Positions 5,498 through 37,223 of a stretch of DNA of 64,000 nucleotides are shown here, one piece after another (position 1 is the first letter of the stretch; each line of letters starts with the position of its first letter). The notes beneath the pieces are model-generated. The model was not told the origin of the DNA, searched no databases, and worked only from the letters and a program-made list of their open reading frames with translations. A program made the translations under genes and the position numbers. Location of the stretch: positions 310,001 to 374,000 of the forward strand of contig BAAIJX010000002.1 in the NCBI GenBank assembly GCA_054600435.1. The letters are read 5' to 3'. The DNA comes from Neophaeotheca triangularis. Lineage: Eukaryota.

Positions 5498-6664
5498 TTA
5501 CGCCCAAGGCGCGGGCACAAAGTTCTCGTTCCAAAGCCCCGGGGCCGGTCTGCTCGCTCTCAGCATCTCAACCGTAGCTGGCAGCAGCTCCTCCAAAGGC
5601 TGGCTGATCCTCACACCCTCCCTCGGTGTCTTCCCTAAAGCCAAGTCCGCGTAAAAAGCCTCCTCGCCACGCACGCCGCCCGTGTTGGCAATTCCAATTG
5701 GCATGCCTTGCTCTTTTGCCCGCTTGACTAGCCTCCAGGCGCTATATGTAGCCAGGCTGGAACCTAGGACTAGTATCCGACTGGCCTCGTCTATTGCCTG
5801 CTCAGCGGCGATTTTGACGGGGTTGGGGATGCTCTCGCCAAACATGATGACGGCCGGTTTCAGCACCCCGGCGGTGGAAGTACTGGACCATGCCCCATCG
5901 CTGTCGATTTCCACTTTCTTGTCTTTGGGAGGGTTGGCCAGACACACGGGACAGGCCGGGTAGCGGAAAGTGGTGTACTCGACACCCGGAATGTCGACGT
6001 CGCCGTCTGGGTTGGTTTTGAGACCTTTGCGGCGCCGCTCTTCGGGGTTTTCGGTTGTGAGAGCTCCCGATGCGAGCATTTCGGCTAGGAAGGCGGACCA
6101 TGCTGGGTTCAGGGCGGAGAGGTCTTGTTGAAATTGCGCGCGGTCGTACTCGGTGCGGCAGGAGAGGCAGACGGTGCTGCGGAGGTAGCCGTGGAGTTCG
6201 AGGGTGCGGAGGGAGGGGTGGGCGGCGGGGTGGAAGGAGTCGACGTTTTGGGTGATGACGCTGCTGATGGTGCCGAGTTGGGCGAGGGCGGTGACGGCGT
6301 GGTGGGAGGAGTTGGGCTTGCTGCGGTTGAGGTTCGTCCAGCCTAGATAGCTGCGGGCCCAGTAGCGTTTGCGGGCTTCGTGGTTGGCGCAGAATTCGTG
6401 AAAGTAGATGGGGCGGTAGGTCTTGTTTAGGGTGTAGGTGCCGTTGCTGCCGCGGTAGTCGGCCAGGCCTGAGGCGACGGAGATGCCGGCGCCGGAAAGG
6501 ATGACGGTCTTGGCATTGGCATTCTCATTGTTGGTGGATGCTGCTGGCTTTTGTTTGAGAAAGTCGTGTAGTGAGGTGATTGCGCCTTGAAGGGTGGTGG
6601 CAGAGGGCGGGATGATGGTGGGTTGCGGAAGCGGCGCCGTGTAGGGGATTCGCATCAATGGCAT
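5498..6664 (-). CDS. NAD-dependent sirtuin deacylase, SIRT4-like (class II)
   Basis: 388 aa ORF with GAGISVASGLADYRG, RKRYWARSY, TQNVDSFH, ELHGYL, CxxC zinc ribbon, KPAVIMFGE and LGSSL. Confidence 0.93.
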   Translation of the reverse strand: MPLMRIPYTAPLPQPTIIPPSATTLQGAITSLHDFLKQKPAASTNNENANAKTVILSGAGISVASGLADYRGSNGTYTLNKTYRPIYFHEFCANHEARKRYWARSYLGWTNLNRSKPNSSHHAVTALAQLGTISSVITQNVDSFHPAAHPSLRTLELHGYLRSTVCLSCRTEYDRAQFQQDLSALNPAWSAFLAEMLASGALTTENPEERRRKGLKTNPDGDVDIPGVEYTTFRYPACPVCLANPPKDKKVEIDSDGAWSSTSTAGVLKPAVIMFGESIPNPVKIAAEQAIDEASRILVLGSSLATYSAWRLVKRAKEQGMPIGIANTGGVRGEEAFYADLALGKTPREGVRISQPLEELLPATVEMLRASRPAPGLWNENFVPAPWA

Positions 6665-7640
6665 GGAAGCTGTCTCTGTCTCTGTCTCAGGTCCATTGCA
6701 GGGTGATGTTCATGTCGCTTGCCCTAGGCAGTTGCAGCTAAAGGTGGTAAGATGGGCGTCTCGTCTTTGTGCAATGGAAGTGGATGTCGTCAGTATATGC
6801 CTTACGTAAGGTAGTTAGTATCCGTGGATCTTGGGGCGTTGATCGCCCTGATCGCCCTGCCTTGCCTTGCCTTTTCTTCCACTCTTCCCAGCTACCCGGT
6901 CTCGCCACAATAATTTAATACATACAATCATACATGTTCAATTATTAGATAGGTACTAATAACAAGACTAGAAGCATACCATACCTAGGTAAGGTACAGT
7001 AGAGAGTAGCAAGCAAACGCGGCCATGTTCAGTTCTTTGACCAGTGGGCTTTGCTAATCGCCTCGTCTCGTTTCGTCTCGTCTCGTCCTGTCTCGTCTCG
7101 CCTTGTGTCAGTCTCGTGTTGCAACTTGTTTGTTTGAGAAGAATAACAATAATCATGTTGGAATTATTAATCAGAAATTAATCAGAAATTAATCAACAGG
7201 GCTCGAGCAGGGCTTACCTCGTACCGCCGGCAGGGCTTGACAGGCAACGGTTAGGATGCTGGTGTTTCAGCGCCCTGACCAGACAGCGAACGGCCAACGG
7301 TCCCAAACGGGGGGGGGGGAATACCTAGGTAGGTAAGGTAGTCTGGGAGCAGGCGGAAAAGAAGCGTGGTGTAACCCGGTCCGGCACCTTTCTTCAAACA
7401 CTTTCACTGCTGAGTCTTGCTCCCTTGCAATTACCAACACTCACTGCACGCGGCCATATCCATGTCCATGTCCATGTCCATGTCCATGTACGTAGCTTGT
7501 TGGTCAGATGAACTGACTACCTAGGTATGCCCTGGTCTGTGTTGAGCTGCGTCCATGGTATATTACTACAGAGAGCCAAGTAGGTCTGGTCTGGTCAAGT
7601 TCCAATCCTTCCCTTCCAATCCTTTCGACCATCATCAATC

Positions 7641-9857
7641 ATGTCGTCTGCTCTTCCTCCTCGTTCCCCTCACGCCCGTATGCGGTCGTCGACTCGCATG
7701 GATCTTGTCCAGTCGCTCCTGAGCAGTAGCAAAGCCTCGTCCAACAAGCCCAAGCCCAAGCAACAACAACTCTCCCCCACCTGCGAAGAAATCAACATCA
7801 ACATCGACTCCCCTCGAGACTCGCTTTCACCCGTCAGACAAGACTACAACTACAACGGGAAGAAATTGGCACATGCAAGAAGCGCCGTCGAACTTTGTCA
7901 GCAACACGAAAAGGTGGCGCCTAGGATCAGTGTCGACTTCCGCGATCCTTTTGCAACGACGCGAAACGACGGCGACGACGACGACAAAGCAGTTGCACCC
8001 GCGCCAGCTCCTGCACGAAGCCGATCCGCACAGAGTTTGAGGAAGGCAGCACCATCACCATCACCATCACCATCACCACCTCCACCTCCACCTCCATCCA
8101 CACATCAAAACAGTCCGACCCAGGCAGTCACCAACCTCCCACCTAGCTCAGCCCCCCTGACCCCGACCCAAGCGTGTCCGCCACGTTCTCTCTCCCGAAC
8201 CTATTACCCTTCACCTCTGCATCTCGACAAATCAAACGGTCACACCAAGACCTTACCGCGCACTCTACGGCCATGTATTCGTGATGCCGTTGCATCGAAT
8301 ACCACTCGCACCTCTCGCTCGCCACAACCCAATCCCAAACGGCCAGCATTGAACCGTCTCAGGACGTACTACAAAGCCCCTGCACCACCACCGCCATCCG
8401 TCGCCGACACCATGGGCAACGAAAATTCCAAGCAGGTCCCCGATGGTGCCACGGCAGCCGATGATGCAAGCATGCGTAGTGTAGTGCGAAAACCACTGCA
8501 TGCGCGTCTGCCGCGCAAGAGCTCTATGAACATCTTCAAGCGCATGGACTCGAAGAACCCACTGTCTCCCTCAACCACTGCAACAGTGATTGTAGTACCA
8601 CCGCCTGATGATATGGCCTTGGATGGAGCCCCCCGGGACGTACCAATACCTTGCATACACGCCCGGCGTCATTCGACAAAGTCACCTATCGACCAACCCG
8701 AAGCACAACCTAGACCGAGCACAGCAACCATGACGGAGAGACTAGCTCAACAGCCCCTCAGCGCTTCCAATACCATTACCAACCTTCCAGAAACTTCCAG
8801 GAATACCCCCTCCCACCCATCGTCGAGCAATGACGCAGACAACGAGGCCAGCAGCGATAAAATCGACTCGCAACCGCCCGTTGTACCGCTCCACCGTAGC
8901 TCGGCTCTCTCGCCCACCTTGCCATCGCCCAGCCCACTCCCAGAGGACAGTCCGCACAAGTACGGGCTACGGGATCGAATGGACACACCCGAGATGCCGG
9001 AGCCGGTCCAAAGTGCCCCGGACATCAGCATTGCCAAGGCAAGGCGAAGGAGCAGTGGCCTGGAAATCTTCAATGTGAGGTTCCCCCTACCACCCACCGC
9101 CTTCCTGCCCATGATGCCCACCATGTCTCGACGCGTACCCTCGCACAAGCACACCCGAAACTCCTCCCTCGGCAGATTCCTGCCCATGTTCTGCCGCTAA
9201 CAAGCGGTCGGACGTTTGCAAAAACAGGATGCTAAACAACTTCAATCCGCGTCTTCCTTCCTCAACGGCCTCTCTACCGCCCGTCGCCGCGCCGAATCCC
9301 GCTCAAACTCCCACTCCAACTTTACAACCCGCGCGGCCAGCGCCACAGACTTCACACGCCCGGCTTCCGCGACTTTCTACAACCCTCCCAACAACACCTC
9401 ACAAACCTCCCTCCTCCGCGCCCGCCGCCACAGCACCTCCCAAACCCACCACACCATCTACCCCCCTTCCTCCCAATCCTACTCGCCCCCAACAACCAGG
9501 CATACAGGCCACAATTTCAAGCCCTCGGGCTTTGCATACGCCCACTCCCTCACGCCCCAGCAAAACAACTGCTACACTTCACATTCCAACTTGCGCCTCT
9601 CGGCCAACAAGCACGCGCCCGTCGAGTGCGCTGTCTGCCATATGGACGACGACCGCGAGCACTGGAGTTGCAGCTGGTGCGCGTTGAGGATGTGTGGGTA
9701 TTGTAGAAGGGGTTTCGCCACAGGGGGTCTTGGGGGTTTGAGAGCGAGGGTTAGGGGTGCTGAGTTGGGTGGGGGTGTTGAGGGGACAATTTGGGGTGAA
9801 GGGCTGGGAATGGGCATGGGGAATGCTGGGAGGGGGAGGAGGGCTAGTTTTGTTTGA
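7641..9857 (+). CDS. Hypothetical Ser/Pro-rich protein with C-terminal Cys-rich (Zn-binding-like) domain; two exons
   Basis: Intron 9075-9227 (GTGAGG...GCTAAC...CAG) joins the 7641 and 9216 ORFs in frame (LEIFN|DAKQLQSASSFLNG). C-terminus has ECAVC...WSCSWCALRMCGYC. True start may be the internal MGNENSK at 8412. Confidence 0.7.
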
Positions 9858-10130
9858 TTGCCGGAAGTTTTCTTTTGTTTGGGTTTGGCCGTCGCCGGGG
9901 GGGGAAGGGGTTCTATTTTATCTTATTTCATTCGGCTTTTGCTTTGCGCTTGGGTCTGGTTACCCGGAAAGCTTCTTACAGCTGGTGTTTGGGTCGAATG
10001 AGGGAGGGAAAGGTGAAAGGCGAAAGTCGAAAGGCGAAGAGAAAGTTGCATATACCCCCCCGGGGGGCCTTGTTTGGCACTGCAGGATATTCGCCTGGCA
10101 TGTATAGATACACATATGATTAGACAGACA

Positions 10131-10208
10131 GACAGAGAGAGAGGGAGAGAGAGAGAGAGAGAGAGGGAGGGAGAGAGGGAGAGAGAGGGAGAGAGACAGA
10201 GAGAGAGA
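10131..10208. repeat. GA/GACA microsatellite
   Basis: Imperfect (GA)n purine tract seen directly. Confidence 0.9.
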
Positions 10209-10356
10209 TAATCGTGGAATATCATCGTCTTCAAAGCCCGTAATTGCTACCACTATGCCTCCATCATCTTTACCACCTCGTTCGTAACGCTATTACGGGA
10301 GCAACGTCCTCGAACCCGAGTACCTACCTAGGTAATCTAAGAAGCGCCTTACACTA

Positions 10357-10447
10357 ACTACCTTACCTACCTACCTACCTACCTACCTACCTACCTACCT
10401 ACCTACCTACCTTACCTACCTACCAACCTACCTATCTACCTACCTAC
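10357..10447. repeat. (CTAC)n microsatellite
   Basis: About 20 near-perfect TACC/CTAC units. Confidence 0.92.
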
Positions 10448-10681
10448 ATCCCACAGCAGGAAGAAGCTCCACTAGGCCACATCGTCGACATAGCCAGATA
10501 GCGCGCGTGAGCAATCCCCAGCACTAGGAGAAAAACGACCGAAGCGGTTTGCACCAACTACGACAGAGACCCAATGTTCGATACACACACACACGTAGGG
10601 AGCGCTAGAAGAGAGAAAGGTACAGTAGACTTGAGCATCGTCATCTGCAAGCATCAATCGATACCTGGGCGATCCACCTGG

Positions 10682-10712
10682 CTAGTCTAGTCTAGTCTAG
10701 TCTAGTCTAGTC
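10682..10712. repeat. (CTAGT)n microsatellite
   Basis: Six tandem CTAGT units. Confidence 0.85.
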
Positions 10713-10973
10713 ATGTAGCACTCTCTGCAGAAGCAACGAAAGGTACGGCGGGAGTTTTGTCCAAGCCCAGGTGCAGTGGCCCGAAGCCAAAGGAAAGCAT
10801 CGCTGGTGGCTGGAAAGGCCTCGTTGGGGTGGATGGCTGCATCGACAGTTCCGGGGGTTAGGTTAGAAGAAACGGAAAAACTTCCCAACCTTTCTCTCTG
10901 GAATCCTCCCGTTCCAGTTCGCATAGCCAAAAAGAAAAGAAAAAAAAAAGGAAAAAAAGTACCCCCCCCCCTT

Positions 10974-12476
10974 TTATCCCCCCACTCCCACCCCGGTCCC
11001 CTCCACTCCCGCAACAGCACCGACAAACTCTCTCCAGCGAAAAACCTCGCCCCTCCCTTTCTTCTGCGGACTCCCGACAGTAGCGGCACCGGTAAAAGCC
11101 CTCCTGCCGACAAAAGCCGCCATGGCAGCCTCGACCTCTTCTTCACCGAGGCGGAAATCCTCTTCCCCGACCTCGGGAGCCGTAGTCATGACGGCTTCCC
11201 TCAGAGCTTCGGCGTCGATTTGTCCCGAGTCTTCGAGGTCGAAGGCGCCGAAGGCTGCGCTTAGTTCTTCCGGGGACGAGAGGTTGCTCATTGGGCTGGT
11301 GAGGGAGGTGAGGTATTGGCTTAGGTTTAGAGTTGGGGGGGTCGTGGTTGAATTTGTTGGGGGGAAGAAGTCCGAGGTTGGTGGGAGCGTGGATGGGTCG
11401 AGACCGCTGGAGGCGAGGGCTTTGGTTAGGGAGGCGGGGGTCAGGGCGTTGGCGCTGTCCGTGTCGAGGACTTCGAAGGATTCGCGCAGGCTGTGGAGGA
11501 GAGGTGGCGGAAGGTGGGTGTAGTTTCCGCCGGCTGGAGGGGCGGTTGGAAGGCGTGATGGGGGTTTGGTGGTGGGAGCATGGTGGGGTTTGGGTGCTAG
11601 GGAGGCAGGGGAGGCGGGTTCGGTGGTGTTGAAGTTTGGTTGGCGGAGAGTGGTGGTTGTTGAGGAGGTGACTGTGCGCTGGGCTGTAGGGCGGAGGTTC
11701 ACCTTTTGGGCCGAGGGGGATTCGAAGAGGTTTGGTCTTGAGCTGGTGCGGGCGCCGTCGAAAGGAGAGTCCAAAGTCGGCGGTGCTGGCGAATGAGGGG
11801 CGGGTGAGGCGTGTGCGCCATCGTAGGGAGAGGGCGAGTCTGGAGTGATGCTGGATTTGCGTTCTGCTCCCGAAGGCAGGCTTCTCGGCGCTGGGTTTGT
11901 CTCGGTCTTTTGGGCCTCTGTAGTCTCAGATAAAGTAGGCGATGGCTCCGGTTCTGGTGTAGGTTCTGGAGCTAAGCTGTTCTGGCGACTGAAGGATAGA
12001 CTGCCTCTGCTCTCTTCTCTATTGAAGATGACACTGCCACGCTTCTCCCGGTCCATGCCACTGCTCGCTCTGCTGGGACTTCTGCTGGGGCTTCCTGGTA
12101 TTTCTAACGCGCTGTTCGACCTGGCGAAAGGACTTGCTGGTCTACTAGTCGAAGCCTGACTGTTCTGACTAGGCCGACGGACGAAAGGGCTCGCCTTCTC
12201 AGGGCTGAGCGATCCATTCTTAGTCGGTGAGACGGATTGGGACAAACTGGAAGAGGCGCGGTGGAAGGATGGGGGAGGTGTCTCGCGTGTGGGAGTCGAT
12301 CCTCGTAGGGAATTGCTCGAGGTTTCGCGGGTTGGAGTCGAGCCCCGGATCGCAGTGCTGTTCTGACGCTTGAAAGGGGATTCTCGGCCAGAGTTGAACA
12401 GGGGGCGTGTGGGAGTAGACTACACTGGTGTTAGTAGGACTCTCTTAATTTCTATATGAGCAGCAAGCCATACCAT
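10974..12476 (-). CDS. EF-hand protein (myosin regulatory light chain/calmodulin-like C-terminus) with long Ser/Pro-rich N-terminus
   Basis: ATG at 12476-12474 is followed by a 54-nt intron 12473-12420 (GTATGG...CTAAC...TAG), in frame with the 423 aa ORF. LRESFEVLDTDS and LSAAFGAFDLEDSGQIDAEALRE are EF-hand-like. Confidence 0.82.
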
Positions 12477-12677
12477 GTTTCTGTCTACCTTTAGACGTAT
12501 ATGAGATGGGTTATCTCTTGGTGTCGCTCGTTGCGTTGCGTACCTAGGTAAGTAGCGTTTGTTGATGACGGACGTAAACACTACCCGCGCTCCAAAGCAA
12601 CCTACCGTACCGAACGATAAGCGCGATAGACTACTCACACGTGCCAAGGTCCGGGCAAGCTTGGCACTTTAAAATTC

Positions 12678-12754
12678 GAGAGGCCGTCGCATTTTGAGAG
12701 GTCGTCGCACTTCCGAGTCGAGAGGTCGTAGTTGCATTTCAAGAGGTTGTAGTT
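12678..12754 (+). repeat. Left subterminal direct repeats, consensus GAGAGGTCGT(C/A)G
   Basis: Four copies starting at 12678, 12696, 12720 and 12741, just inside the GTGCCAAG/CTTGGCAC hairpin (12641-12667). Confidence 0.75.
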
Positions 12755-12999
12755 AAGCTATTGTAGGTAATAGAAGTTTTGGCCGTAGCTTACGACTTCA
12801 TCACGACAACATGGTGGGTATTGATTGCGATACTATGATTACGAGACCTAGGTTAGATTGTGCTACGACGTTATGAACATTTATTTCTTCACTCTAATTT
12901 AGCTTTACTCCAATTTAGCTTTAAATAAGGACATTCTTAGTACTTAGAACTTTCGCAGGACACGACGTACTCTAACTATAAGTGTAGACAGGTAGTAGC

Positions 13000-15900
13000 A
13001 TGTTACTTATACCTACTCCGAGACCTGAAATGCTTTCCATAAGATCCCCGCTAACACATATACCGAAAGGACTCGTGTATAACGGCTACATGTTCTCTTA
13101 TATAGTGAACCTCCTTGAATTCTTATGTATAGTTGCTATAGGAGTACGGGATACATTAAGCGTCGTGTTTTTTTTTATGCTCCTATAGAGCTTTAGTAGT
13201 CGTATAGGCTTTACTGTAATCTAAACATAGTAGCTTCTCGCCGTCATAGAAGCACTTTATATAGTCTACCGTCTACTACTTTATTATAAAGGTCATCCCG
13301 TAACTCCTTAGACACGGTAGCCGTTTTCGGATTCGCTTAATATTAGTGCGGTAGTGTCTCGCCTCGTGTTCATCGCGCCTAATCCTTTCAGAAAACTACT
13401 CTATACAACTCGGGAACTAATAGAGCTATCTACTACCGGTATCCTTTCGTTAGACTCTTCGTAAGTACTCGGCTAGGCTTAATTGGGTTTTAAAGCCCTC
13501 GCCGTAGTCCGGACAGTTAGCGCTATACCTCTTAGTTATTATATAGCCCTCGTCGCCGTTAGCGTTATAGCGATATCGAAGCGTAACATCGGTAGAGCTA
13601 CCCTTAAGCTATTTAGCGCTATCTGTCTACCTATAAGTCTCGTACTCTTACTCTACTTTAGTTAGTAGTCTAATTGTGTTACGGTAAGTTTATATCGCGC
13701 TACTATATTAGAGACTATAATCTATTATATCGGGGTCCGTACTATTAAAGATACTTGCGTCGAGCTTCTAATAAGATAGTAAAGTTAAGTATACTATAAA
13801 CTATTCATGTATATAGGCTTACCCGCTTATGTTAATACTACTAATAGAATCGTACATGTTCGCTAGTCTTTTAACTAAGAAGGAATTCTACCGTAGGCTC
13901 TAACTTGTATCCTCTTAGTAGGCTATGATTAAAGGGGTATAGACGGACTAGGAGATACATAATAGGTAGATGTCTAAGAACTCGTACCTATCCGCGAGTA
14001 TTGCCTATGTCTTATTATTAGTAGTAAGGCTGTCTAGTCCGTTAAAGATGATCACCATTTTAATCTTTCGGCCTCTATTAGGTTAAGCCCGTCTATAGAC
14101 GTTAATAGCTTAGAATTACTAATGAATCTTGTCCCCGTTAGTTACGTAATACTCTAGAAAGAGTGTATTACTAGTTCCTAGCTTATAGATATAGGGTATG
14201 TGGATTCGCTCTTGTTTCTATAACGCTATCGTTAGTTACATTACGGTTATAATAGTCTATAGGCGTCTAGCGACGGGCGAGAAGTAAGAGTGATACGTGT
14301 CTATTAACTATTCACATCGAGCTTCTATTATATAGATTCGCTTTAAACTCGTAATCCGGTCACTTACCCTAACTACCGTCATAAAGACTTAAAAGTTACT
14401 ATTAAAGTCGTCTTCTTACTCGGTACCTTTAAGGTAGCTAGCTAGAGAACAAGTCTATTAGTACCGAGGTGCTTACGTTCCTACTAAATCCCTACTATAT
14501 TACCTAGTAAGTTGAGTCGTATCCGGTTCGTAGCGCTTCCTTAAACATAGCTAGGGGTATTCTAGTATTTATCAATATAGTTTCGACTCGAGAGAGTAGG
14601 ACATCTAGCATTTCCTAGTTAAATACCTACGAAAGACCCTTAGCTATCTCGTCGCTTATAGTAGGTTCTTTACGAGCTTCGAGAAAGTCATATATAGCTA
14701 TATAATAACTAATGGCATATTCATTCTAGAGAGCCCCTACTTCTACTTTGCCTTTAGAAAGGTCGTCATCATTATCTACTAGAGTAGCTCTAGCGTCAAA
14801 TATGATTTCGCTCTTATCTACTACTATAAAAGAGGCGTTAGTATTAGTTATAAACAGATGAATCCTTAACCGCTAGAGACTTACTCTCGACCCTAAGGAG
14901 TTTAGATAGGGATATAGGTATAGTAAAGTAGGTACTTACGGTTTATAGGACGGCCTTTCAGGATCCTATCGAAAGCTTTACGGATAATAGTAGCGCTATA
15001 GCCTTATCCTTTGTAACGTTACTCGTAGATCTCGGTAAAGGGTAAAGGTAGGGCTACTAAAGTGTTCGCTTTACATATCGGATTATCATTTGCTACTATA
15101 GTAGTAGCTTTTTGTACGGTATAGTTTTATAAAAAGCCTAGGCCGCTATTCTCTATAGAAGCTAGTAGGTCCGAGCGATCCTTGTCGGTAATAGCTATAA
15201 TAGCCTCTTAACGTCTACTAGTAGATCTAGATATAGGTAGAATGTTAGTGTTCTTAGTAGACTAGCTTATACTATTAGGATTCGGCCTAGATGTCTTTAA
15301 GGCTCTAGACTAGTCCGTAGGATAGTCGAGTACGTATCTACATAAGTCCTCGTAGAGTTCGGAAAGGTATTACTATCTTAACTTATAGCCTAGGCTATAA
15401 GTAGGCTCGGCCTACTCGAGTTACTCTCTAGGAGTAGCTAGCTAACAGTACGTCTTAAAGGCTATCTAATCGTAATCCGAGCTATTAGACTAAGTGAGAC
15501 TAGGAATTAGCTTGTAGTACTAATTTACATTAGCCTATCTAGTCTTAATATGCGTGACTATAGTAATGGCTTTCGCGAGACGAGAGAGTTAATCTAAGTT
15601 AGGCTTATATAGAGAGTCGGGCTCGCTTAGAGAGTTATGTAAGTCAATATAACCCTACTTCTAGCTAAGCATTACTATTATCTATATGTGAATCTAATAG
15701 TTATTCGTCGGGTTAAAGACTACATGAAGATTTGTCATATTATTAGGTAGGTCCGCTAATACTTATGCCTAGAATTTCTTGTCGCTAAATTGTAAAAAGG
15801 AGTTATACTCGATTTGCTTTTTCATCTCCTTAAGGGACTTGTTTTTCAAGCTATAGGCGGTATTGTGTTGAACTAGTTCTAATAGCCTAGTCCTAAGTGC

Positions 15901-16353
15901 TAAGTTAATAACGGTCGGTAATGTAAAGACGCCGTGTCCTAGTACTAGGGCCTTTAATGCTAATAACCTTACTAACCGACTTAATAATATAGAGTCCGTT
16001 ACCTAATCGTCGAATTTGTTCTCGTAGTATACCGGTAAGATCTTGAGGATGTCCTTAGTAGTTAGTAGAGCCCTACTAGAGGTAGCTACCTCTAATTTCG
16101 TTTAGAGCGGAGAGAGAGTAGCCCTATAGTAAAGCGTATCCTCGTTAAGTCGTTACTAATAAATCATTAAAACTTTATAGTATACATACCTAAGCATAGT
16201 TACCTTTAGGTTAAGGCCTTTATCCTTATCATGATTACTTATCGAAGAAATGGTTGTCCGGAGATACTTTACATACTAGAATGCTCTTTTAACGGTATAT
16301 CTATACTCTAGCATAATAGGATGTAACGTTTTAAATGTTATCGACATAGGCAT
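13000..16353 (-). pseudogene. RIP-mutated multidomain gene: Ulp1/peptidase C48-like protease, unknown middle region, ~5 C2H2 zinc fingers
   Basis: Read through TAA/TAG with apparent introns. Protease motifs: DD[W]VTDSIL, VFNPTNN[H][W]I (~15696), LH[D]SL, T[Q]SNSSD[C] (~15480). C-terminal fingers: CPD[C]GEGFKTQLSLAE[H], [C]xFPSCxExF...HEARH, C[P]RS[C]GMTF, C[P]D[C][G]KAY...EHKKKH, P[C]S.S.[C]T[Q]EF...EHVAVIH. Brackets mark de-RIPed residues. Confidence 0.72.
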
Positions 16354-17013
16354 TAGACGATTAAGTATAGTAGTATTTTGATCCGCATTTAACTACGCGG
16401 GTTATTTCGGTAGTAGTTATTACTTCGATTACTAAGTTACTATATAGTAGCTACTCTTATTATTAAAAGAACTATCGGAAGAACTATCGTTAGTAATAAT
16501 AATAGGGTCGTGTAACGGACCTTACCTAATAACCTCTTCTACTACTAAGTCGTCTTATTAAACGAATAGCGTTAAAGATTCTTCTTAATCGTCTACTAGG
16601 GACGTCTAGAAAACCCTTTATCCGCGTCCCCTACGTCTAGTACGTTAGCCGTGTTAGGACAGTAATAGCCACGTCTTATCGAGGGGCTTCGTATCCCGCT
16701 ATATTTATATATGTCCTACTACTTCTATTCGAGTCTCGTAAAATATGAGTACGTCGCTTCGCTTCCTACTTATCATATCTTAGGGTTTTACTCGTCATAT
16801 ATAGTTACTACCTATCCTATAGCCTACTATAGCTCCTCTCTAGTTAGAGTCCAAACCTAATACTATACTAGGCTATAGTATAGTCTATGATCCGGGTTAT
16901 GATTTGGGTCACGATTCGGGTCATGATTCGGTTTATGATTCGGGTCCTGATTCGGTTTATGATTTAGGCACTAGTTAGGGCTTTTAAGTAGTAATTATTC
17001 TCTATTAGGAAAT

Positions 17014-18033
17014 AATGGGTAGCCTTAGTATACTTATATAGCATTACGCTCTACTATTCGTAGTTTAGTCCTACTACTTATAACCTTATAAACAAACACT
17101 ATTTAACCTATACACTTCTAATACTTAAAGGATCGAGTAAAGTAGTAAGGTTTACCTTTACCTATAAGCTATATAGACTAGTGCCTAATTAGCGACAAGT
17201 CCTTACTATAGCCGTTAATATACCTACTACTACCTTTATATACTAAAGCTAATATATACCTCGTCCCTTAAGGGCCCTATCGCTCTTCGATAGGTTCATC
17301 TTATGATCTACTAACCTTCGACATAGAGACGTAATATAGTTAGTTCATGTAATAAGACCTAGCTAAAGTAGCTCTCTAAAGGGATTACTAGCGCTTTATA
17401 GAAGAAGAGAGAAGGCCTACTACATAGTGGCATCGCACTATACTATAAGAGTTATTTAAGGAAGAGCTATAAGAGGTAGTTCTATGTATATAACCGTACG
17501 AAAGGCTATAGCCGCTAGAATAGACACCTAATCTAATAATAGTAGAGCCTCTAGTTATAGTACCCATAACTAGACATACTATATACTCCTACTATAACGA
17601 CGAGGCTTTTACATTATCTTAATGGTAGCTAAAGAACATGTCGCCTATTATAAAGCCGAAATATTCCCTTACCTAGGTCACGACCTACAATACTACTATT
17701 ATATTTACCTAGACATACGAGTTCGACGACGATGTACTAGAGGTATCGGAGATGATTTACGACGCCCTTCTTATAGTAGAGGAGCATGTAAAGTATACTA
17801 GGAAGGCTTACTAGGAGGTCGCTCGTGATGCTATTATGTTAGTATCTTCTATACGACACTTAGGCCTCTATAAGTAGCTAGATTTCAAGAACAGCTCTTA
17901 CTAGTCTAAGAACATCTACCCTTTAGCTAACCGTTATAGTTAGAGAGACCCTAACTATGTAGTTACTATAGAGGTTATATAGGCCTTTTCAAATTATGAG
18001 GATAGTGTTATACCTAATACCCCCTAGTACTAA
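17014..18033 (+). pseudogene. RIP-mutated hypothetical gene
   Basis: One frame from ~17281 reads as ~250 codons of protein-like sequence broken only by TAA/TAG. No domain recognised; 5' end uncertain. Confidence 0.45.
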
Positions 18034-18060
18034 TACTATCCCTAACGCTAATACACTCTC

Positions 18061-21000
18061 TTAGCCTATTCTTTTCCGCTTCGCTAGACGTGTCCTACTA
18101 TTCCCCTTTTATATCTCTATCTCGCTAGGTCTAGACTACCTTAATCTTCGCTCTTTTACATTATAGGTATCCTATACCTCCTTCACTTCCTAGTTAGTAT
18201 TCTATAGTATGTTGTATGTCTTGAAGTCAGCTATATTATTAATGTACATATCCCTACCCCTAACCTTATTCTCATCGACTAGTACTATGTGTATACTATA
18301 GTATATACTAGTTAGCCCATATATCTAACGGCCTCTTAGTTTACTAGCCTATAGGGAACTCGGTACTAGTATAATTAATGTCATGCTATAGGTGTCGTTA
18401 GCGAGACCTCTTAGATCCTTTAGTTAGTATAGATTAACGAAAGTACCTGTATATATAGGACGGTCTTTCATACTACTATCGAATAGTTACTACCCTTATT
18501 ATGTTATTAGAACATCTTTAACTAATAGTACTAGGTATAGCTATACTAGTAGCCTACTATTAAACGCGATGTCATCTTCCGCTCGTTCCAATATATTAGT
18601 AGTATACTCTTATACCTATAACTAGTCGTACCTTGTATTCCTAATCGTCCCTTACTAGTTAGGATTATAGCGTATAACATCTAGTTCCTCTACATTAGGG
18701 TTTATTAGGTTACTACCGCTTCTTTTCTAATACTATAAGGAAGCATAAAATTTTACCTAGAGATCTAGTACCTATTAGTCTACTACGATGAGACGATCTA
18801 GATCCGCTTCCTACTTATATGTATTCACCGGATCGTTCACTAGATCATTCGCCGGATCATTTACTAGATTATGGACCGGATCATGGACTAGATCATAGAC
18901 TAGATCGGTACTCGAGTCGTTAACTAGATCGGTACTCGAATCATTAACCGGATTAGGATACGAATCGTTTACTAAACTAGTTACCAATTCGTATCCTGGT
19001 CTAGTTACCGGTTCGCTCGTCATTCTAGCGACATCTATATAAGTAGATGTTCTTTATTCATGTATGAATACTATAATTACCTTATATAGGTAAGTGCCTA
19101 TTAGTTTACCTATTAGGCCTTACACTTTATGTATAGTCCTCTACCTATTCTAAGCTCTTACCCCCTTCGATTAAGTAGGCTATCTAAAGAACCTATAGAC
19201 TTCTACTAACTCTATTAGCTGTACTAGCTAGCTAGTGTCCTTAGCGAGCTCCGTAGTACTCCTAGCTCTTCCTATTAGGCTAAGATCGAACTACGCTTAT
19301 AGATAGAATAATCTAGTTATGTATTCGAATATTTGAGTCTTCTAGCTAGAGCACTTATTCGTGATCTTAAACAAGTCTTTAATGAAATCAATGTGCTTAT
19401 ACTCGAAATGGCTACTGTTAAGGTCTAGGGCATTCCTATATATTCGAATCATATCTAGGTAATACACTATAATATGCTATTTAGGGAAATTAAAGTGACC
19501 TTTACTAGTGTCGACTCCCTACTATATAGTAATGTAGTACTTCCTAAATACTTCCTTAAACTAGTTTATTCGAAATAGTACTAGGGTTATGAAACCTAGA
19601 GTGTCCTTATCGTGGCTCTAGTACATCGCTAGTAATACGAAGTCTATTACCGCCTATAAGAAACGTACTATATCGTGTTCTCCTACTTCTAATAGTAATG
19701 GGGTTAGTACTAGTAGTAGCTATTAGAGGATACTCTTATTCTCTTTCCCTATCTACTACTTTATAGATGAAAGGTAGCGGAATACCTTTAATCCTAGGTA
19801 AGGAGGCACTACTATAAAACATTTGTCTACTACTTTGGTTATCTTTGTTTTAGAAATAGGACCTGTTTTCTTATAGTAGCCTTAATATGCATTTAGGGCA
19901 CGTTGTTATGTCGTCTCTTAGGGTATAGCATTCTTAGACATCTTGTCTTCTAATAGAGTTATGGCCTATTATAATATATGTATTATAACCCCTTTTAAGA
20001 GTTAGTAGAGGATATCGACTATCATGGTTTTATAGATGTTAATGTGCTTATGTCCGAAAGCGAAACAGTCGATGTTATGTACCTATAAGTCATCTTCCTT
20101 TTTAATTGCCCCTATTCATTATTATTAGTACTGTTCTTAGCTCTAGGCATATAAGCGCTATAGCATAGTGGCTTCGAGGTCTTCTCTATTACCCGGTTCG
20201 ATTATGTATATTATATAATGCTAGTTAGCTTTAACCCCTATGATTTTGACTTGTTCTTTGTAGTCGATAGCTATTATAGCTAATATCAGGAAACATTGTC
20301 TAGTCTAACTATCTACGTACTCTACTTTAAAGCTACTATCGTTAACGTAGTCTCTTATAGGGTTAAATAGTATCTAGAGACATTCATAGAATAGTCTCGT
20401 TCGGTCCTCTAGATTATCTTCCTTAACTATTAGTAGTATTACTAACAATATACTCCCTACTCGCTTATTCATATTCTATATACTAGTATCGAGGTTACTA
20501 ATTATGAGGTATACTACATAGGTAGCTAGGTCGCCTAAGTGATTCATAACTTAAGTCTTATCGCTTACTACTATTAATAGTACTACCGTTACTCTATCTA
20601 TGTTGATTCTACGTTACATGTTCTACTACTAATCTCTAGATGCTATATCAGTATATATTCGTTTAGGTAGTTGTCCTATTATAAATATGTGGTAGGGCTT
20701 ATAGGTTAGCTCTATATCGAATCCTTTATAGCCTATAAAGAAGTGTATACTGTCTAGGACGTTCCTATGTCAGAGTGTATACTTCGTCTTTCTTATATCG
20801 CTTTAAGGGGAGTCTACTTCTACTTCTCTTATAAACTAGTTAGAGGCTTTAGTTACCGGCTTAGTGCCTATAGTCCTTATATGTGCCTTAAGCTTATCGC
20901 TTATCTTCTAACTAAGTAGATCTCGAAGGGAGCCTACATTTAGGTTACTAAGTAGGCACATAATCGCCCTCCCTAATATATTTTCCTCTATTATCTAATG

Positions 21001-22080
21001 TATGAAACTTAGATCGAACGCGCTCTTAAATACTCTATAAGCACTATCTTTATCTGTAATATTGTCCTCCTTATAAGGGCTCGATCCCCTTAACTAGGAT
21101 TTCGCTACTAGATTAGGTCTCGAATTAGGTCCTGAATTAGGTCCTAGATTAGGTCTCGAATTAGGTCTCGATTTAGGTCCTAGATTAGTGACTAGTATCG
21201 GTTCGGTTTTGTTCCTTAACGATACTAGTTATTATGTCTAATACTATATTATAGTAACATCTTACTTACCTATATAAACGTTGTCTAGCTTTCTACCTAG
21301 TTTGAACAGAATACTACTTATGTTTATAACTACTAGCATTTATCGAGGACGAAAGGCGCCTATTACTAATTAGTATAGAACTAGTACTTAGGTTTAGACC
21401 GTTACTATCGTCTTGTTTAACATCCCCCTCTTCGTTTAGTAACACTAGTTGTTCTACTTAGTCCTCTATATACATAGTAGACTCTATTTCCGATTCGTCT
21501 ATTACCCTATATATATCATCGAATATACCTAATGCGTCTATCTTATAGGTATGTAATATAGTCTTTATAGAGGTAGAATAGTCTTTCTAGGTTTTACTCT
21601 CTACTAAAGGAAGGGTAGCGTTCGAACGAGATTCGTTTATGATTGCTATATCTACCTTAGGGCTAGAGTTATAGGGCTATATACTTAGTATATAACTGTT
21701 ATTGTTCATATAATGGTCCCTATCAATCGAAAATGTAGGGTCTATAGCGCCGGCTTCATTAACTACCTCGAGTTAGTATCCCCCTTATTCGTTATGTGTT
21801 AATGCTAGTTATATACTCGAGTAGTAAAACTTACCTTCAACTTCGTTATTATAGCCCCTTTAGTCTTCGAGTTCTCTTAGGTATAGTATGTCTATATAGG
21901 ACGATACTAGTTCGCGCTATCGTATATAGCCCTATATATATTGTTTTAGGCCTTCCCTCCTTTTAAAGTTCGACTTACTACATAAAGAGTAAGCTCCTAA
22001 TGTTATTATCTTTAGTGTTCGGTATAGGTATGCTCGGTATAGTAGAATCTATTCATAGTAGTGTAGATTTACTATGTATC
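18061..22080 (-). pseudogene. Plavaka-family transposase, RIP-inactivated, with N-terminal C2H2 finger and introns
   Basis: Motifs in the expected order: VVSDKT[Q]...GDLA.YVVYL.I[G]NL (~20560), [C]VD[G].TRQCF, AIDYKEQ..I.GVKA..H[C]..[C] (~20260), VDIL[H][Q]LLKGV (~20000), HFNFPK[W]H...[H]Y.D.IR.Y[G] (~19480), HFE[H]KHIDFIK..FK.TNK (~19400), R[C]NPN[W]...R.D[W]..V and YINN.ADF..YN.L near the C-terminus. Confidence 0.88.
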
Positions 22081-22299: not shown

Positions 22300-25200
22300 T
22301 ATTATATATATCGATTAGGTTACTACCCTTTATATTCGAGTACCTCCTAGACTATATACTAGTCTAGTAACTAGTTCGTTTATATTTCATGAACTAGGAC
22401 ACCTTTTAACCTTATAGTACACTTAATTCGTAGATATCGAACGGTTTAATGATTATGCCTCTATCTCTTTACTAGATATATATATCGATTAGGTTATATA
22501 TCTTTATATTCGAGCACCTCCTAGACTTTATACTAGTCTAGGAACTAGTTCGTTTATATTTCATGAACTAGGATACCTTTTAACATTATAGTACACTTAA
22601 TTTATAGATATCGAATAGTTTAATGATTATACCTCTATCTCTTTACTAGCTAATAATGCTGTCTATAGTCTACGTAATAGGTAGCTACTACTCTACCGTA
22701 GCCCCTAACCCGCCTTATGTATCCGTTATAGTAGTATCCTCGTTTCCCTTATCTATATCCCTCTATACCCTCATTTTAAGCGCTATAGCTTCGATACCTT
22801 TATAGATGTCTACTATGTTCATATAGCATTTCGCTAAGTCGACACTAAGGCTATAGTAAGACGAGTACGAGATAAGGTGATAACTTTCAGTATGCTTTAC
22901 TATTTGTACTGCCTTATTATACCTAACTCGACTAGTTAACTAGGTATCCGCTTCTAGTAACCATAACCTATCGAGTAATACGATAACATTAGCTAGTAGT
23001 AAGGACACTCCCATGTTAATCTTCAAGACTACTATAGCTATAATATAGGGACTATCTTCGTATCCTTCCGCTTTATTCTATGTAGTCTAGAACGCAATGA
23101 TCTTCGACCGGTTATTAGCGCTACCTAACCACGATTCGATAAGGGTAATGTTCTCGAGGTTACAAATGTAGGGGTAATCCCTCTTAGCTAACTAGTAGAG
23201 GTATACATATATAATCGCTATGTTTAGCGGTTTATGTGCTACGAAAACGATCTTCTTTAGGTAATTGAGCTCGTTCTTCTAGTTTCATATACTAGTTATT
23301 AACATCTTAATGTAGTATATAGTATTAGTTATGTTGAGTTCCTCTATGTACTTCTATAATATACTATTCTTTCTAGTATTAATAATCCTTTTTGTAGTGC
23401 TATTGTCCTATAAACCTATCTCTTTAGCTAATTCCGTATCATCCTAGGCTAACTAGTAGAGGGCTAGGTATATAGTAAAGACATGAAAGTAGTTAATGTA
23501 ACTAAAGAAGCTTTCCTCTAGTAAGGATTCCTCCTAGTGTGCCTTTAGTCTACTAGTATACTTCTCGTCTATAGGAACCATTATGTCGAATGTAGTATAT
23601 AGTAGAATGTTAATAGTAGGCATCCCCCTCTTAGTAGGATTAGGTTACTACTAAAGGTTAGGTTCGAATTTAATTATTTATAGCTCGATCTATTTAGTAA
23701 ATTCGGCAATTATATTGTTATATGCTGCCTTTACTATAGCGTCATCTACTCTAGCTAGCCCTTTCGCGAATATTAGCTAGATAGTATGTTTGTCGATAAC
23801 CTTAGTAATTAGGTCTATATCCTAGTAGCTAAGTTAGTTAATAACTTCAATTTGTTCCTTATTTAGACCTTTAACTATATAGGTATAGATACTAGTAGAG
23901 AAATCAGACGCTTTATACTTAAGGTTATTAGGTACGTTCGTTAGGTTAAAAGGGGCGAAGTTCTTTACCATACTGTTAAAGTACTTCGTAAATATAGTGA
24001 TAGAGATAGTCGCTATGTTCGTAGTATGTGTGAATAGAGTTACGCTAAGTACTAGTATAGGTAGGTCGCCTCTTATGTTTCCTACTATCGAGAATAGATA
24101 GGACTTAAATGCCCTAGTAGTATAGAACTCATCGACTAGTACGATCGACTACACTATATCGATAGGCTTTTTATTAGTCGCTTTAGTGTAAATAACATTA
24201 CCGATGTTAGACTAGTTTATTAATACCTACTAGTTACGATTCTACGAGTAGGCCTTATCCCCTTAGGTATAAAGTAAGTAGTCTTATACTAGTATACTAC
24301 CTTCTCTCTTATATGTCTACATTTATTCTTCTTCGAATACCTCTATAAGTTCGTCGTATAGGGCTAGTATACTCTTTAGGACCTACTACATGTAGTGGAC
24401 ATATCCTATATACTTTAGTATTATAGAACCCGTGTTTTCGAAGTTAGACTTTTTATATATAGCTTTATAGGTAATAACGATATAGGGTAGGCTACTCTTT
24501 TCGATAAACTTGAACTACTCACTAGCCTATTAGTTAAGCATGTTAATAGGGGTAATGATAAGGGCTAGGCCCCTCTTTATCTTTACTATAGTATTAGTAA
24601 GGCGAGTCAGCATCCTTTAGTTAAATACTCTAGGGTCGTATATCTCTAACTTAGGTATAGGTATGTATTTTAGGAAGCCGTCCCCTATAGATAGGCCTAG
24701 TATATCGTTATAGGGTTCCTCTTCGTTATACTATACCCTTCGTAAAATCTCTATAATAGCGAGGCTCGTTAGTGTTTTACTAAGGCCTATAGCTATTAAG
24801 TTAATGACGAGATTATGTCCTATAGTAATCTGTTTCATAAGAAATGTAGTAGCGAAAAACTAGTATGCTTTCAATATATACTGTTTATTCTAGCCTAGCT
24901 AATAGACTATACTCCTAGAGTTATATTTATTAGGATTAAAGCCGAAAAATTAGTAGGTATATCTCTAAGCTTTAGGCGAAAAGTGAGATGACTAAATGTA
25001 CTTACTAATGACATCATCATCCTTATCTATGACTTCGACTACATACGCGTTAGAGTTATTATTATTCCTACCTAGTATATTATTATCGATAGGAACTCAA
25101 GCCTTAAGTTCTATAGATGTACTTAATAGCTAGTCTACTAGATTGTATTCGAATTCGCCTTTGAAATCGATAGATAGTTCGTTATAACGCTTCGCTTTCT

Positions 25201-26908: not shown

Positions 26909-27248
26909 CTTTCCTAGAAAGACATTACTATAAGGTAGGTTTCCTAGTGAAGAAAGAAGGTTGTAGTATATAGCTAAAGTAGGCATGTGAAACTAATAGA
27001 TAGTGGTAGGAGTAGTGTTAGTAGTAGTGTAATGAAGAAGGTGTATTTAGTAGAGGTAGTAGGTTATAAAAGAAGCGTGTATTGTTTATAGGTGTTATTT
27101 ATAGTATAGAATATGAATATACGGCTATAAGGGGTAACATAGTATGTGCTAACTAACTTAGTAAAGTACTAAGCTAGTAGGAATAGAAGGCGTAGTAATA
27201 AAGAGTATAAAGGGCGATGACACTAAACCGGTAAACAATCTAGTAACC

Positions 27249-27427
27249 GAACTAGGAACCGATTTAGGGACTAATTTAGGATCCGATTTAGATGTACGGT
27301 ATAGGTAAGTGAAACCTTCGAGAGTAGTAGATATAACAAACTAGGAACTAATTCAGGTACTAATTCAGGATCCGATTCAGATGTAGAGTATAGATAAGTA
27401 AATCCTTCGAGAGTAGTAGATATAATA
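27249..27427. repeat. 89-bp tandem duplication containing 12-bp motif units
   Basis: ACTAGGAAC...CCTTCGAGAGTAGTAGATATAA starting at 27251 and 27340. Confidence 0.8.
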
Positions 27428-27471: not shown

Positions 27472-27960
27472 TTCCTTCGACTACTACTAGACCCTACCTT
27501 AGCCATAAATGCCTTAAGATAGTAGTAGCTACTACTAGTACTACTACCCCTTCGACTACTACTAGGCCCTACCCCTACTATACTACTACTAAGGAACGCG
27601 ATGATCTCGTAAAGGTGTTAGAGGCTAAGCCTACTAAGCTTATTACTTTAATGTAGTAGTAACTACTACTAGTACTACTACCCCTTCGACTACTACTAGG
27701 CCCTACCCCTACTATACTACTACTAAGGAACGCGATGATCTCGTAAAGGGGTTAGAGGCTAAGCCTATCGAGCTTATCGCCTTAATGTAGTAGTAGCTAC
27801 TACTAGTACTACTACCCCTTCGACTACTACTAGGCCCTACCCCTACTATATTACTACTAAGGAACGCGATGATCTCGTAAAGGGGTTAGAGGCTAAGCCT
27901 ACTAAGCTTGTCGTCTTAATATAGTAGTAGCTACTACTAGTACTATTACCCCTTTAACTA
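27472..27960. repeat. 134-bp tandem repeat, ~3.5 copies
   Basis: CCCCTTCGACTAC anchor at 27547, 27681 and 27815, with a degenerate copy at 27949 (period 134). Confidence 0.92.
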
Positions 27961-29569: not shown

Positions 29570-30083
29570 TAATAGCTATGATTTTTAAGAGGTATCCGAG
29601 CTATACTATAGAACCGAAGTTGCTTCGAACCTATACCCTCTATATAACTCTAGAACGACACTAGATACCATACTGAATCGAGCCCTACTATAGCGATAAA
29701 CGCCCGGGCTATAACGATTCTATATAAACCGTGTCCTAGTTCGGTTCCTAGTTCGGTTCCTAGTTCGGTTCCTAGTTAAGGGGGGGGGAGGGGGGTCTTA
29801 TTACTACTACTATATACGCTTTAGTGTAAGCCGATATACTGTATAGATAGGTGTCTAGGTAGTATATTCGAGGGAAGTCTAGGGACATTTGTAACTACTA
29901 TCGTAAAACTAATACTAGTTATATCCGTTCTAGTAGTAATAGAAGGATTAGTAATAATAGTGACGACTATAAGACTAAGACTATAACACCTAGTACTTCA
30001 CGGCGCGACGAGGTTAATACATAATAGGGGTCATAATAGTAATAGTCCTTTTATATAGAAACTATTTAAAGGTAGATAGGAGG

Positions 30084-30501
30084 TGTTACGATCCTATAAG
30101 GTAGTCTTATGGGTAGAGCTCGTAGTAGAAGAGGAGAGATATCGTAGAAGGCTAGTAAGGGTGTTCCTTTGTTATAAGGATTTCAAAGATACGTGAAGTG
30201 TCGCTATAGACCTTTTAGTAAGATTATAACATGAGTTAAACATAAATCTCTACCTAGGAAATATCGCTAGCTATATACATAGGAGATTCGTACTAGATCA
30301 GTTCTTGACTAATCTATCGTGCTCAGGATTAGACTAATCCTAAGTGTCCTAGCTTAGACTCAGTCTAAGTCTAAGCGAGTATGCTTAGTTAAAGTCTAAG
30401 CGAATGTCTTAGCTAGTTCTAAGATCACATGTCTAGTAAGCTTTAGGGTTAGACCCTAGCTTAGACTAGGGATTCTAGCTCTACTTAGCTTAGCCATAAC
30501 A
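30084..30501 (-). repeat. 3' LTR
   Basis: Direct repeat of 36806-37223, adjacent to the polypurine tract. Confidence 0.95.
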
Positions 30502-30585
30502 CTATCCCCCTTTCAGTCTAGCTTCGTCCTCGAAGCCTAATAAAGTTCTGTTATTCCCTACATCGTTTTATCATCAAGTTTCGCG

Positions 30586-31185
30586 ATGTCTTCTACCCTA
30601 TCCTATAAATAGTAACGTCTCAATCTTTTAGCCGAAATCAAGAAGTCTAGAACAACTAACATAGTACCCTATTCAGCCTACTAATCTACGAGGAAATCGC
30701 CTTCGGCCGAACTAGTACGATGTGTAATTAGTGCTCGATCTAGTCGGTGTTCGGAATGTATACATAAAGGGTATACTAAGTGCGATATAAAGCTTAGTCG
30801 TCCTAAGTAGGAAAAATGGAGAGATTCACATAACAAACTATAACGGCAGTTAGAGGAGTATAAGGAGGAGGAGCTCGAGCTTTTGTAAAAACTATATAAG
30901 CGTTATTCAAAAAAGTTGTAGTTATAGAAACAGCTTCATTATGCTAAGGGTTATATAGAAACCGTAGTATCTAGAGAGTTAGAGGATTTAGAGTAAGTAG
31001 ATCGGTTAGAGGAAGATCTCTTAGGTCCGGTTAACACTAGGGTTAAGGTTATGTAGCGTCTAGGCTTTATTAGCATTCTAGAGATGTCGACATAGGACTA
31101 AAGTACTATCGACGGCTTGGATCTTCCTTCTAAGTTTTAGGATTTCGGTCCTAATAATATTGTTATAAGGCCTTCCGGTAGTTAA
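30586..31185 (+). pseudogene. Antisense accessory ORF of the retrotransposon: Zn2Cys6-like cluster plus coiled coil
   Basis: 200-codon frame: P[C]SA[C]...RCVI...S.RCSEC..KG.TKCD, followed by a Glu/Lys/Leu-rich helical stretch. Confidence 0.7.
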
Positions 31186-31189
31186 GTAG

Positions 31190-36770: not shown

Positions 36771-36805
36771 CCTATTAATCTCTCTTTCCTAGAGGGTATT
36801 CAAAG

Positions 36806-37223
36806 TGTTATAATCCTATAAGGTAGTCTTATAGGTAGAGCTTATAGTAGAAGAGGAGAGATATCGTAGAAGGCTAGTAAGGGTGTTCCTTTATCGTAAG
36901 GATTTCAAAGATATATGAAGTGTCGCTATAGACCTTTTAGTAAGATTGTAACATGAGTTAAACACAAATCTCTACCTAGGAAATATCGCTAGCTATATAT
37001 ATAGGAGATTTATGCTAGATTAGTTCTTAACTGATCTATCGTGCTTAGGATTAGACTAATCCTAAGTGTCCTAGCTTAGACTTAGTCTAAGTCTAAGCGA
37101 GCATGCTTAGTTAAAGTCTAAGCGAACATCTTAGCTAGTTCTAAGATCACGTGTCTAGTAAGCTTCAGGGTTAGACCCTAGCTTAGACTAGGGATTCTAG
37201 CTCTACTTAGCTTAGCCGTAATA
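36806..37223 (-). repeat. 5' LTR
   Basis: Direct repeat of 30084-30501; the differences inspected are C/T or G/A transitions. Confidence 0.95.

Follow-up and report, generated by a model that had tools for sequence, protein, structure and literature searches.

A dead, RIP-mutated copy of a rare fungal protease and zinc-finger gene, probably of selfish origin, in Neophaeotheca triangularis

We analysed a stretch of 64,000 nucleotides from Neophaeotheca triangularis (contig BAAIJX010000002.1, forward positions 310,001 to 374,000; called the window below), in which an earlier reading of the letters alone, here the original prediction, had placed a Ulp1-type protease fused to a C2H2 zinc-finger array at the left end of a mobile element. 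It turned out that the minus strand of the window, from 12,990 to ~16,600, carries a copy of a rare fungal multidomain gene that was mutated by repeat-induced point mutation (RIP) and probably came from a selfish or mobile element. The copy is dead and unable to make any protein: stops run through all six frames, and the best frame, on the minus strand, has 99 of them in 1,266 codons. Its conserved portion is 12,990-16,086, and an N-terminal acidic and Ser-rich part extends to ~16,600, where repeated DNA starts.

The region of the gene (13,000-16,353) forms the left edge of an AT-rich block of 34.6 kb (~12.8-47.5 kb of the window), whose GC content is 0.34-0.40 against 0.49-0.65 in the flanks. 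RIP changes C to T and G to A, and in 12,900-16,400 TpA/ApT is 1.89 and (CpA+TpG)/(ApC+GpT) is 0.34, compared with 1.65-1.89 and 0.33-0.44 in the block overall and 0.73-0.85 and 1.10-1.16 in the flanks. The TpA excess and the CpA/TpG deficit are accompanied by divergence that consists almost only of transitions, as in a RIP-mutated repeat. The composite RIP index of the gene is 1.55 (1.20-1.52 across the rest of the block), and RIP strength is sustained along 3.7 kb of the gene region, ending at a sharp left edge. Since the gene is mutated as heavily as the adjoining repeats and the edge is sharp, the gene's own DNA would once have been duplicated. The heavy RIP supposed in the original prediction is borne out both by these dinucleotide indices and by a directional test on conserved columns, which is described with the family below.

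To read through the damage, each T was taken as possibly a former C and each A as possibly a former G, which gives sets of possible residues per codon; no restored sequence was built. The family itself was found with the unaltered, X-masked frame: a phmmer search against 1.84e9 protein representatives returned eight proteins at E ≤ 1e-3 (best 1.0e-7; handles of the form P0004 below). Seven are large relatives of 647-1,869 amino acids, all labeled “hypothetical” or unnamed, while the eighth, P0010, is a generic C2H2 protein whose match lies over the fingers. The profile built from the seven members gave 119.9 bits in 12,000-20,000, on the minus strand and with nothing elsewhere in that interval, and tblastn with single homologues (P0004, P0011) was collinear with the relic. 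In 57 columns six or more of the seven members agree, and the relic has the same residue in 31 of these. Among the 26 mismatched columns, 14 are restored by T>C or A>G and none by C>T or G>A; the transversion control restores 2, and 10 are unexplained. This collinear match, together with the bias in the direction of RIP, indicates that the relic is a RIP-destroyed copy of a once-typical family member. The frame changes by one base on each side of the winged-helix segment, which points to an indel or a small intron at each place.

The rival that the motifs are an artefact of liberally reversing RIP in AT-rich junk could draw on the silence of Pfam, which finds no match at E ≤ 1 in the raw translation of the three minus frames of the relic, and on the RIP-aware finger pattern, which also occurs at 22 other places in the block. 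It is refuted by the phmmer search with the unaltered X-masked frame, by the one-strand, collinear match of 119.9 bits, and by the opposite-direction control, which restores 0 of 26 columns, and we give it practically no credence. Other searches with the relic added little: a sequence search of the PDB gave noise only (E 0.09-0.91), and a word-index search with the RIPped frame gave no further homologue. The matched segments are collected in Table 1.

Table 1. Segments of the relic gene and adjacent repeats (window positions).
Feature	Positions	Strand	Evidence or remark
N-terminal acidic/Ser-rich remainder	16,087-16,604	-	Translation 'DDLVVEE...NDSSSDSS', like the acidic/Ser-rich stretch of homologues; no significant score
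C48/Ulp1-like cysteine peptidase domain, RIP-inactivated	15,330-16,086	-	Family profile 25.3 bits; P0004 tblastn E 4.7e-5; codon register
Profile positions 444-602, front of protease	16,086-15,564	-	25.3 bits
Winged-helix segment	14,440-14,701	-	Frame shifted one base relative to flanking domains
Profile positions 767-855, winged helix	14,701-14,440	- (neighbouring frame)	Weak match
Alpha/beta core, long helix and zinc ribbon	13,575-14,424	-	Family profile 76.2 + 14.2 bits
Profile positions 859-1050	14,424-13,842	-	76.2 bits
Profile positions 1108-1187	13,815-13,575	-	14.2 bits
C-terminal C2H2 array, RIP-damaged	12,990-13,520	-	Four fingers from 13,422, 13,227, 13,155 and 13,056; a fifth, degenerate one around 13,515
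GAGAGGYYGT[C/A]G repeats (four, direct)	12,678-12,752	+	Immediately outside the sharp RIP edge; 240-310 bp past the last finger

The protease had been predicted from His-Trp, D-S-L and Q-x-N-x-x-D-C motifs. The first and the last stand in the register of the family after RIP reversal; none of the motifs is literal there, apart from a D-S-L that lies 6 residues off register. At the His position the relic has TAT (15,699), now Tyr and from CAT in the RIP-aware reading, followed by a TAG stop (15,696, from TGG) at the Trp position, in the context 'NPTNN-Y-stop'. The position of the catalytic Asp is the AAC codon of an N-S-L at 15,636-15,630 (HNSL, 15,639-15,630), and the literal D-S-L is found 6 residues beyond it, at 15,618-15,612. 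The single Q-x-N-x-x-D-C match in the region is 'stop-SNSSDYD' at 15,492-15,471, which RIP reversal turns into Q-S-N-S-S-D-C-G, with the codons TAG (15,492), AAT (15,486), GAT (15,477), TAC (15,474, from TGC) and GAT (15,471, from GGT). The four catalytic positions (His, Asp, Gln, Cys) of the relic, read as TAT, AAC, TAG and TAC, are collinear with the family but altered by changes of the RIP type. The distance from His to Cys is 75 residues, where the six homologues with a protease domain show 74-79.

In the six homologues, His, Gln, Asn and DCG are invariant, and the catalytic-Asp position holds Asp in two and Asn in four; P0008 is without the domain. For PF02902 (cut-off 20.7), Pfam gives P0011 27.2 bits, P0009 17.7 and P0004 16.5, and P0005, P0006 and P0007 are not listed at E ≤ 0.01. 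Against SENP1, the family profile matches at the QxNxxDCG active-site motif with E 0.14. The domain thus has the H...(D/N)...Q-x-N-x-x-D-C-G order and spacing of the Ulp1/SENP SUMO proteases (PF02902; SENP1 structures 2ckg and 6nnq), but differs from them in its weak sequence signal, in the Asn that replaces the triad Asp in four of six members, and in its place inside a protein of >1,000 amino acids with DNA-binding domains. We class the protease as C48-like and as probably active in the intact members.

Downstream of the protease, the original prediction had noticed a short segment resembling a helix-turn-helix. The segment is real, and its quoted sequence, AIYDFLEARKEPTISDEIAKGL, can be read literally at ~14,701-14,630 of the minus strand, one base out of the frame of the flanking domains; its type is better described as a winged helix. 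The predicted fold shows a three-helix bundle with a beta wing, of the forkhead or linker-histone type.

About five C2H2 fingers had also been proposed, and the C-terminus indeed shows four tandem units and a degenerate fifth. The four units follow the RIP-aware pattern C-x2/4-C-x12-H-x3-5-H in the gene's own frame, and are visible after RIP reversal only; Pfam finds no C2H2 finger in the raw translation of the relic. The pattern has 26 matches in the six frames of the 34.5-kb block, so that ~0.05 would be expected in the 0.45-kb array, which is ~80-fold over background. The finger region is also matched by P0010 (phmmer E 9.2e-5 in five stretches; tblastn at 13,239-13,165 with E 0.004-0.011), and the family profile matches the fingers of HKR3 with E 0.008. 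In the homologues, the C-terminus carries two C2H2-pattern units in P0004, four in P0005, six in P0007, two in P0008 and three in P0009, where shuffled sequences average 0.05-0.17; tandem arrays of 2-6 units are thus a feature of these relatives. Protease and C2H2 fingers occur within one predicted protein in P0004, P0005, P0007 and P0009. As the two modules are joined in these four of the seven intact homologues, and not split into separate genes, the fusion claimed in the original prediction is real.

Outside the gene, the motif GAGAGGYYGT[C/A]G has 11 matches in the window against 3.48 expected, a number reached by 0 of 100 shuffles. Four of them cluster at the left edge of the block and none is at its right edge. 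Candidate roles for the cluster are those of binding sites or of subterminal repeats. The GC-normal flank beyond them holds a 481-codon open frame (10,974-12,419, minus strand) for a Pro/Ser/Thr-rich protein, the 5' end of which faces the GAGAGG repeats and the RIP edge.

Taken from N to C, the plan of the family comprises a disordered N-terminus, the C48-like domain (6/7; consensus HW ... N/D-S ... Q-x-N-x-D-D-C-G-F), a Zn2Cys6-like cluster (4/7), the short helical segment, a core of ~350 residues, a zinc ribbon and variable fingers. The alignment of the seven members has 28 invariant columns. The Zn2Cys6-like cluster (C-x2-C-x6-C-x5-6-C-x2-C), situated between protease and winged helix, is found in P0005, P0007, P0008 and P0011; Pfam Zn_clus gives 27.1 bits in P0008, and in the relic the cluster is not recognisable even with RIP reversal. 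The C-terminal tail differs between members, being C2H2 fingers, a GATA finger (1/7) or none. For two relatives NCBI names the organism, and both are Dothideomycetes: Elasticomyces elasticus (KAK5680011.1) and Hortaea werneckii (KAI7552578.1/KAI7721205.1). Word-index searches with residues 430-1200 of P0004 (which found only itself) and with the core profile against longer proteins (only P0008 and P0006) gave no new member, and P0006 and P0007 were not found among metagenome contigs. Full-text literature searches found no paper describing this domain architecture. The family is a rare and uncharacterised one of large fungal proteins, and adds a variant to the Ulp1 proteases already familiar from selfish DNA.

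The most conserved part of the family was overlooked in the original prediction. It is the alpha/beta core of ~350 residues, with the motifs DD, R-x-S, HHARFS, EPGSS, GWDGLTT and YGRLD, and with a zinc ribbon of the form CExC...RG...LRC; tblastn detects it in the relic from P0008 (E 3.9e-7) and P0006 (E 4.9e-6). Pfam gave noise only and no family for the core of all seven members at E ≤ 10, the PDB search with the core profile gave noise (E 1.4-2.2), and the ESM Atlas search gave no usable match. Folded alone from seven sequences, the core is predicted as a five-strand beta-alpha-beta sandwich followed by a long helix and the zinc ribbon (predicted local distance difference test score, pLDDT, 71.3; predicted template modelling score 0.75). 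The predicted beta-alpha-beta order is not RNase H-like, and none of the 50 best fold matches is a DDE enzyme.

Foldseek with the core against PDB and BFVD gave nothing at E ≤ 1e-3. In the fold ranking of 48,161 chains, however, ranks 1, 3, 4, 5, 6, 7, 10, 11, 13, 19 and 37 are catalytic domains of serine recombinases. They include a large serine integrase, TP901-1, TnpX, Sin, a serine recombinase of a temperate Streptomyces phage (4bqq), the resolvase-family 3guv, gamma-delta, Bxb1, the putative conjugative-transposon recombinase 3g13, Tn3 and IS607 TnpA. In BFVD, weak matches to recombinases and integrases recur (best E 0.083).

Resolvases carry an Arg and the nucleophilic Ser after strand 1, and the arginines of D-R-L-x-R after strand 3. 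In the family, R36-x-S38 is invariant and stands directly after strand 1 (strand 30-36), and an invariant D145 follows strand 3. The place of the R-x-S recalls that in serine recombinases (PF00239), and the acidic residue followed by the long helix and the zinc ribbon recalls the layout of large serine integrases. On the other side, G and T stand where the arginines of D-R-x-x-R would be, so that D-R-L-x-R is replaced by D-G-L-T-T, and none of the seven members matches PF00239 at E ≤ 10. When the core was aligned by hhalign with seven enzymes (PinE, PinR, YbcK, and the TP901-1, A118, Bxb1 and phiC31 integrases), P was 0.29 in local and 0.83 in global mode, and the local alignment was limited to strand 1 and R-x-S. 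The resemblance is a lead and not a membership. In our view it is quite unlikely that the core is a highly diverged catalytic domain of the serine-recombinase type. If it were, the family would supply the recombinase for fungal mobile elements of a new class, with no relation to the IS607-like elements known from amoebae and giant viruses and equipped with their own Ulp1 protease and sequence-specific DNA-binding array.

The surroundings of the gene bear on its origin. The AT-rich block is a composite RIPped island, not one element. A Gypsy pol frame (31,400-35,299, minus strand) matches RVT_1 (96 bits), RT_RNaseH (80.5), Integrase_H2C2 (49.5) and rve (15.9), and is flanked by direct repeats of 300 nt (30,083-30,382 and 36,805-37,104) that are 93% alike; pol domains between repeats resembling long terminal repeats (LTRs) identify a RIPped Ty3/Gypsy LTR retrotransposon at 30,083-37,104. 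The block also contains longer tandem repeats at 22,303-22,649 (174-bp x 2), 27,511-27,954 (134-bp x 3.3) and 40,113-40,387 (102-bp x 2.7).

We looked for copies of 6,000-20,000 of the window among the contigs of sequencing run X1, the probable source; runs X2 and X3, with the same organism label, contain almost none of the stretch or its flank, and the comparison rests on X1. The gene body (13,005-16,273) lies on a single contig with a depth of 122.9. From ~16,604 rightwards there are extra contigs, which differ by 195 transitions and 2 transversions among the matches listed. The gene may be cut at ~16,604, at the start of DNA that recurs in other parts of the genome; the boundary is given by a loose contig end at 16,604 and a single contig ending at 16,633. 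The DNA of 16,604-20,000 belongs to a repeat family of its own, of which there are several copies diverged by RIP, and its frame 17,600-19,999 has no Pfam match. Arrays of 12-bp units (e.g. TATGATTCGGGT, ATTAGGTCTCGA) are found at 16,886-16,964, 18,823-18,948, 21,108-21,188, 27,241-27,291 and 29,734-29,777, the last two inverted; they lie in separately repeated DNA right of 16.6 kb, outside the C48 gene.

These data were set against the rival put forward in the original prediction, in which the gene is an accessory terminal gene of a large multi-gene DNA transposon with its left end at ~12.7 kb, the fingers bind the GAGAGGTCGT and 12-bp repeats of the element, and the transposase lies further right. 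The end of the gene does lie close to the sharp left RIP boundary (190-230 bp) and to the four clustered GAGAGGYYGT repeats (240-310 bp). A few extra, transition-diverged X1 contigs occur at 12,683-12,887 as well as right of ~16,604, with none over the gene body among the matches listed, which is the pattern expected of internal-deletion derivatives beside an autonomous copy. However, the Gypsy element in the block means that such a transposon would be at least nested. No partner of the left-end 450 bp (12,600-13,050), direct or inverted, was found in the window, also in purine/pyrimidine space; the test for terminal inverted repeats and target-site duplications is limited to the window, and RIP blurs repeats. 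Besides, in seven chosen low-stop frames of the block the only transposase-like match was Gypsy pol, Pfam being insensitive on RIPped DNA. With a composite block, extra contigs starting only from ~16,604 on the right, and no terminal partner in the window, the label of an element's left end is not upheld, and we regard the large-transposon rival as unlikely.

The original prediction had also named MULEs and Zisupton as carriers of such proteases. Membership in these families finds no support, as no transposase family is present in any of the seven homologues. For the Ulp1 domains in MULE and Ginger1 transposases, removal of a ubiquitin-like modifier where DNA transactions take place has been proposed (PMC2836005, PMC3212892). 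With KI-MULE/MuDR with Ulp1, Ginger1 and the oomycete CryptonF/CryptonS, as treated there, our family shares a C48/Ulp1 protease within a large protein that has DNA-binding modules, and a place in repeated, silenced DNA. The differences are that the MULE, Ginger1 and Crypton proteins of those accounts have a recognisable DDE transposase or tyrosine recombinase, of which none was detected in the seven homologues; that the protease is N-terminal to the rest here and C-terminal in Ginger1; and that winged helix, alpha/beta core, zinc ribbon and C2H2 array are not in the MULE, Ginger1 or Crypton architectures as described. With the giant Starship elements of Pezizomycotina, as they are described, the relic has in common that a large gene borders an extensive insertion prone to RIP. 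Starships are defined by a DUF3435 tyrosine-recombinase “captain”, whereas the family has none and the block is a composite of ordinary repeats.

A further rival needs no mobility at all: the gene could be a host chromatin or transcription regulator, a DNA-targeted deSUMOylase of the Ulp1 type, which was duplicated or lay beside repeats and was destroyed by RIP or its leakage. Its modules (the Zn2Cys6-like cluster of 4/7, winged helix, C2H2 and the GATA finger of 1/7) are typical of fungal transcription factors, the homologues have no mobility domain, and X1 shows the gene body as a single copy at ≥85%. Yet leakage decays with distance, and RIP is as strong in the gene (1.55) as in the block and stops at a sharp edge after 3.7 kb. 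The very sparse family (seven among 1.84e9 representatives, with a damaged query) and the swapping of tail domains between members, as in proteins of selfish elements, also speak against a host regulator, which we consider rather improbable. The sparse family, the swapped tails and the Ulp1 precedent in MULE, Ginger1 and Crypton are what make us favour a selfish element over it.

Several observations weigh against the reading as a RIPped copy of a selfish-element gene, beside the missing partner of the left end. Run X1 yielded no other copy of the gene body at ≥85% identity, and blastn found no further gene copy within the window, so that the past duplication is read from RIP alone. No transposase, tyrosine recombinase or other mobility domain was detected by Pfam in the seven homologues at E ≤ 0.01 (E ≤ 10 in the core). 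Only seven proteins make up the known family. For the protease, P0004 and P0009 are below the PF02902 cut-off, and the relic, too, has Asn at the catalytic-Asp position. Both structure models (winged helix/core, P0008) rest on 7-9 sequences, with pLDDT of 61.8 and 71.3.

If the gene did belong to a selfish or mobile element, this source would have inserted beside what became the RIPped transposon island, and the segment of DNA with the gene would have been duplicated at some time and hence mutated by RIP. In life, the protein may have been tethered to specific DNA by the winged helix and the fingers, to which some relatives add the Zn2Cys6-like cluster or the GATA finger. At the tethering site, the Ulp1-type protease could have stripped chromatin or repair proteins of SUMO or of some other ubiquitin-like modifier, as proposed for the Ulp1 domains of MULE and Ginger1 transposases. 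The central core, rather than the protease, would be the best candidate for the main catalytic activity of the family on DNA.

Ulp1-type proteases recur inside eukaryotic transposases, and to our knowledge nobody knows their role. In this family, such a protease is combined with a winged helix, a finger array and a conserved core that has no match among known transposases. The dead copy in the window matters as a pointer to this family only. If the core is a mobility enzyme, the family would represent a new kind of eukaryotic mobile element, and the intact genes of Hortaea and Elasticomyces would offer a tractable protein for asking why selfish DNA carries deSUMOylases. If the family is instead a host regulator, it would illustrate how a protease can be directed to particular sites on DNA.

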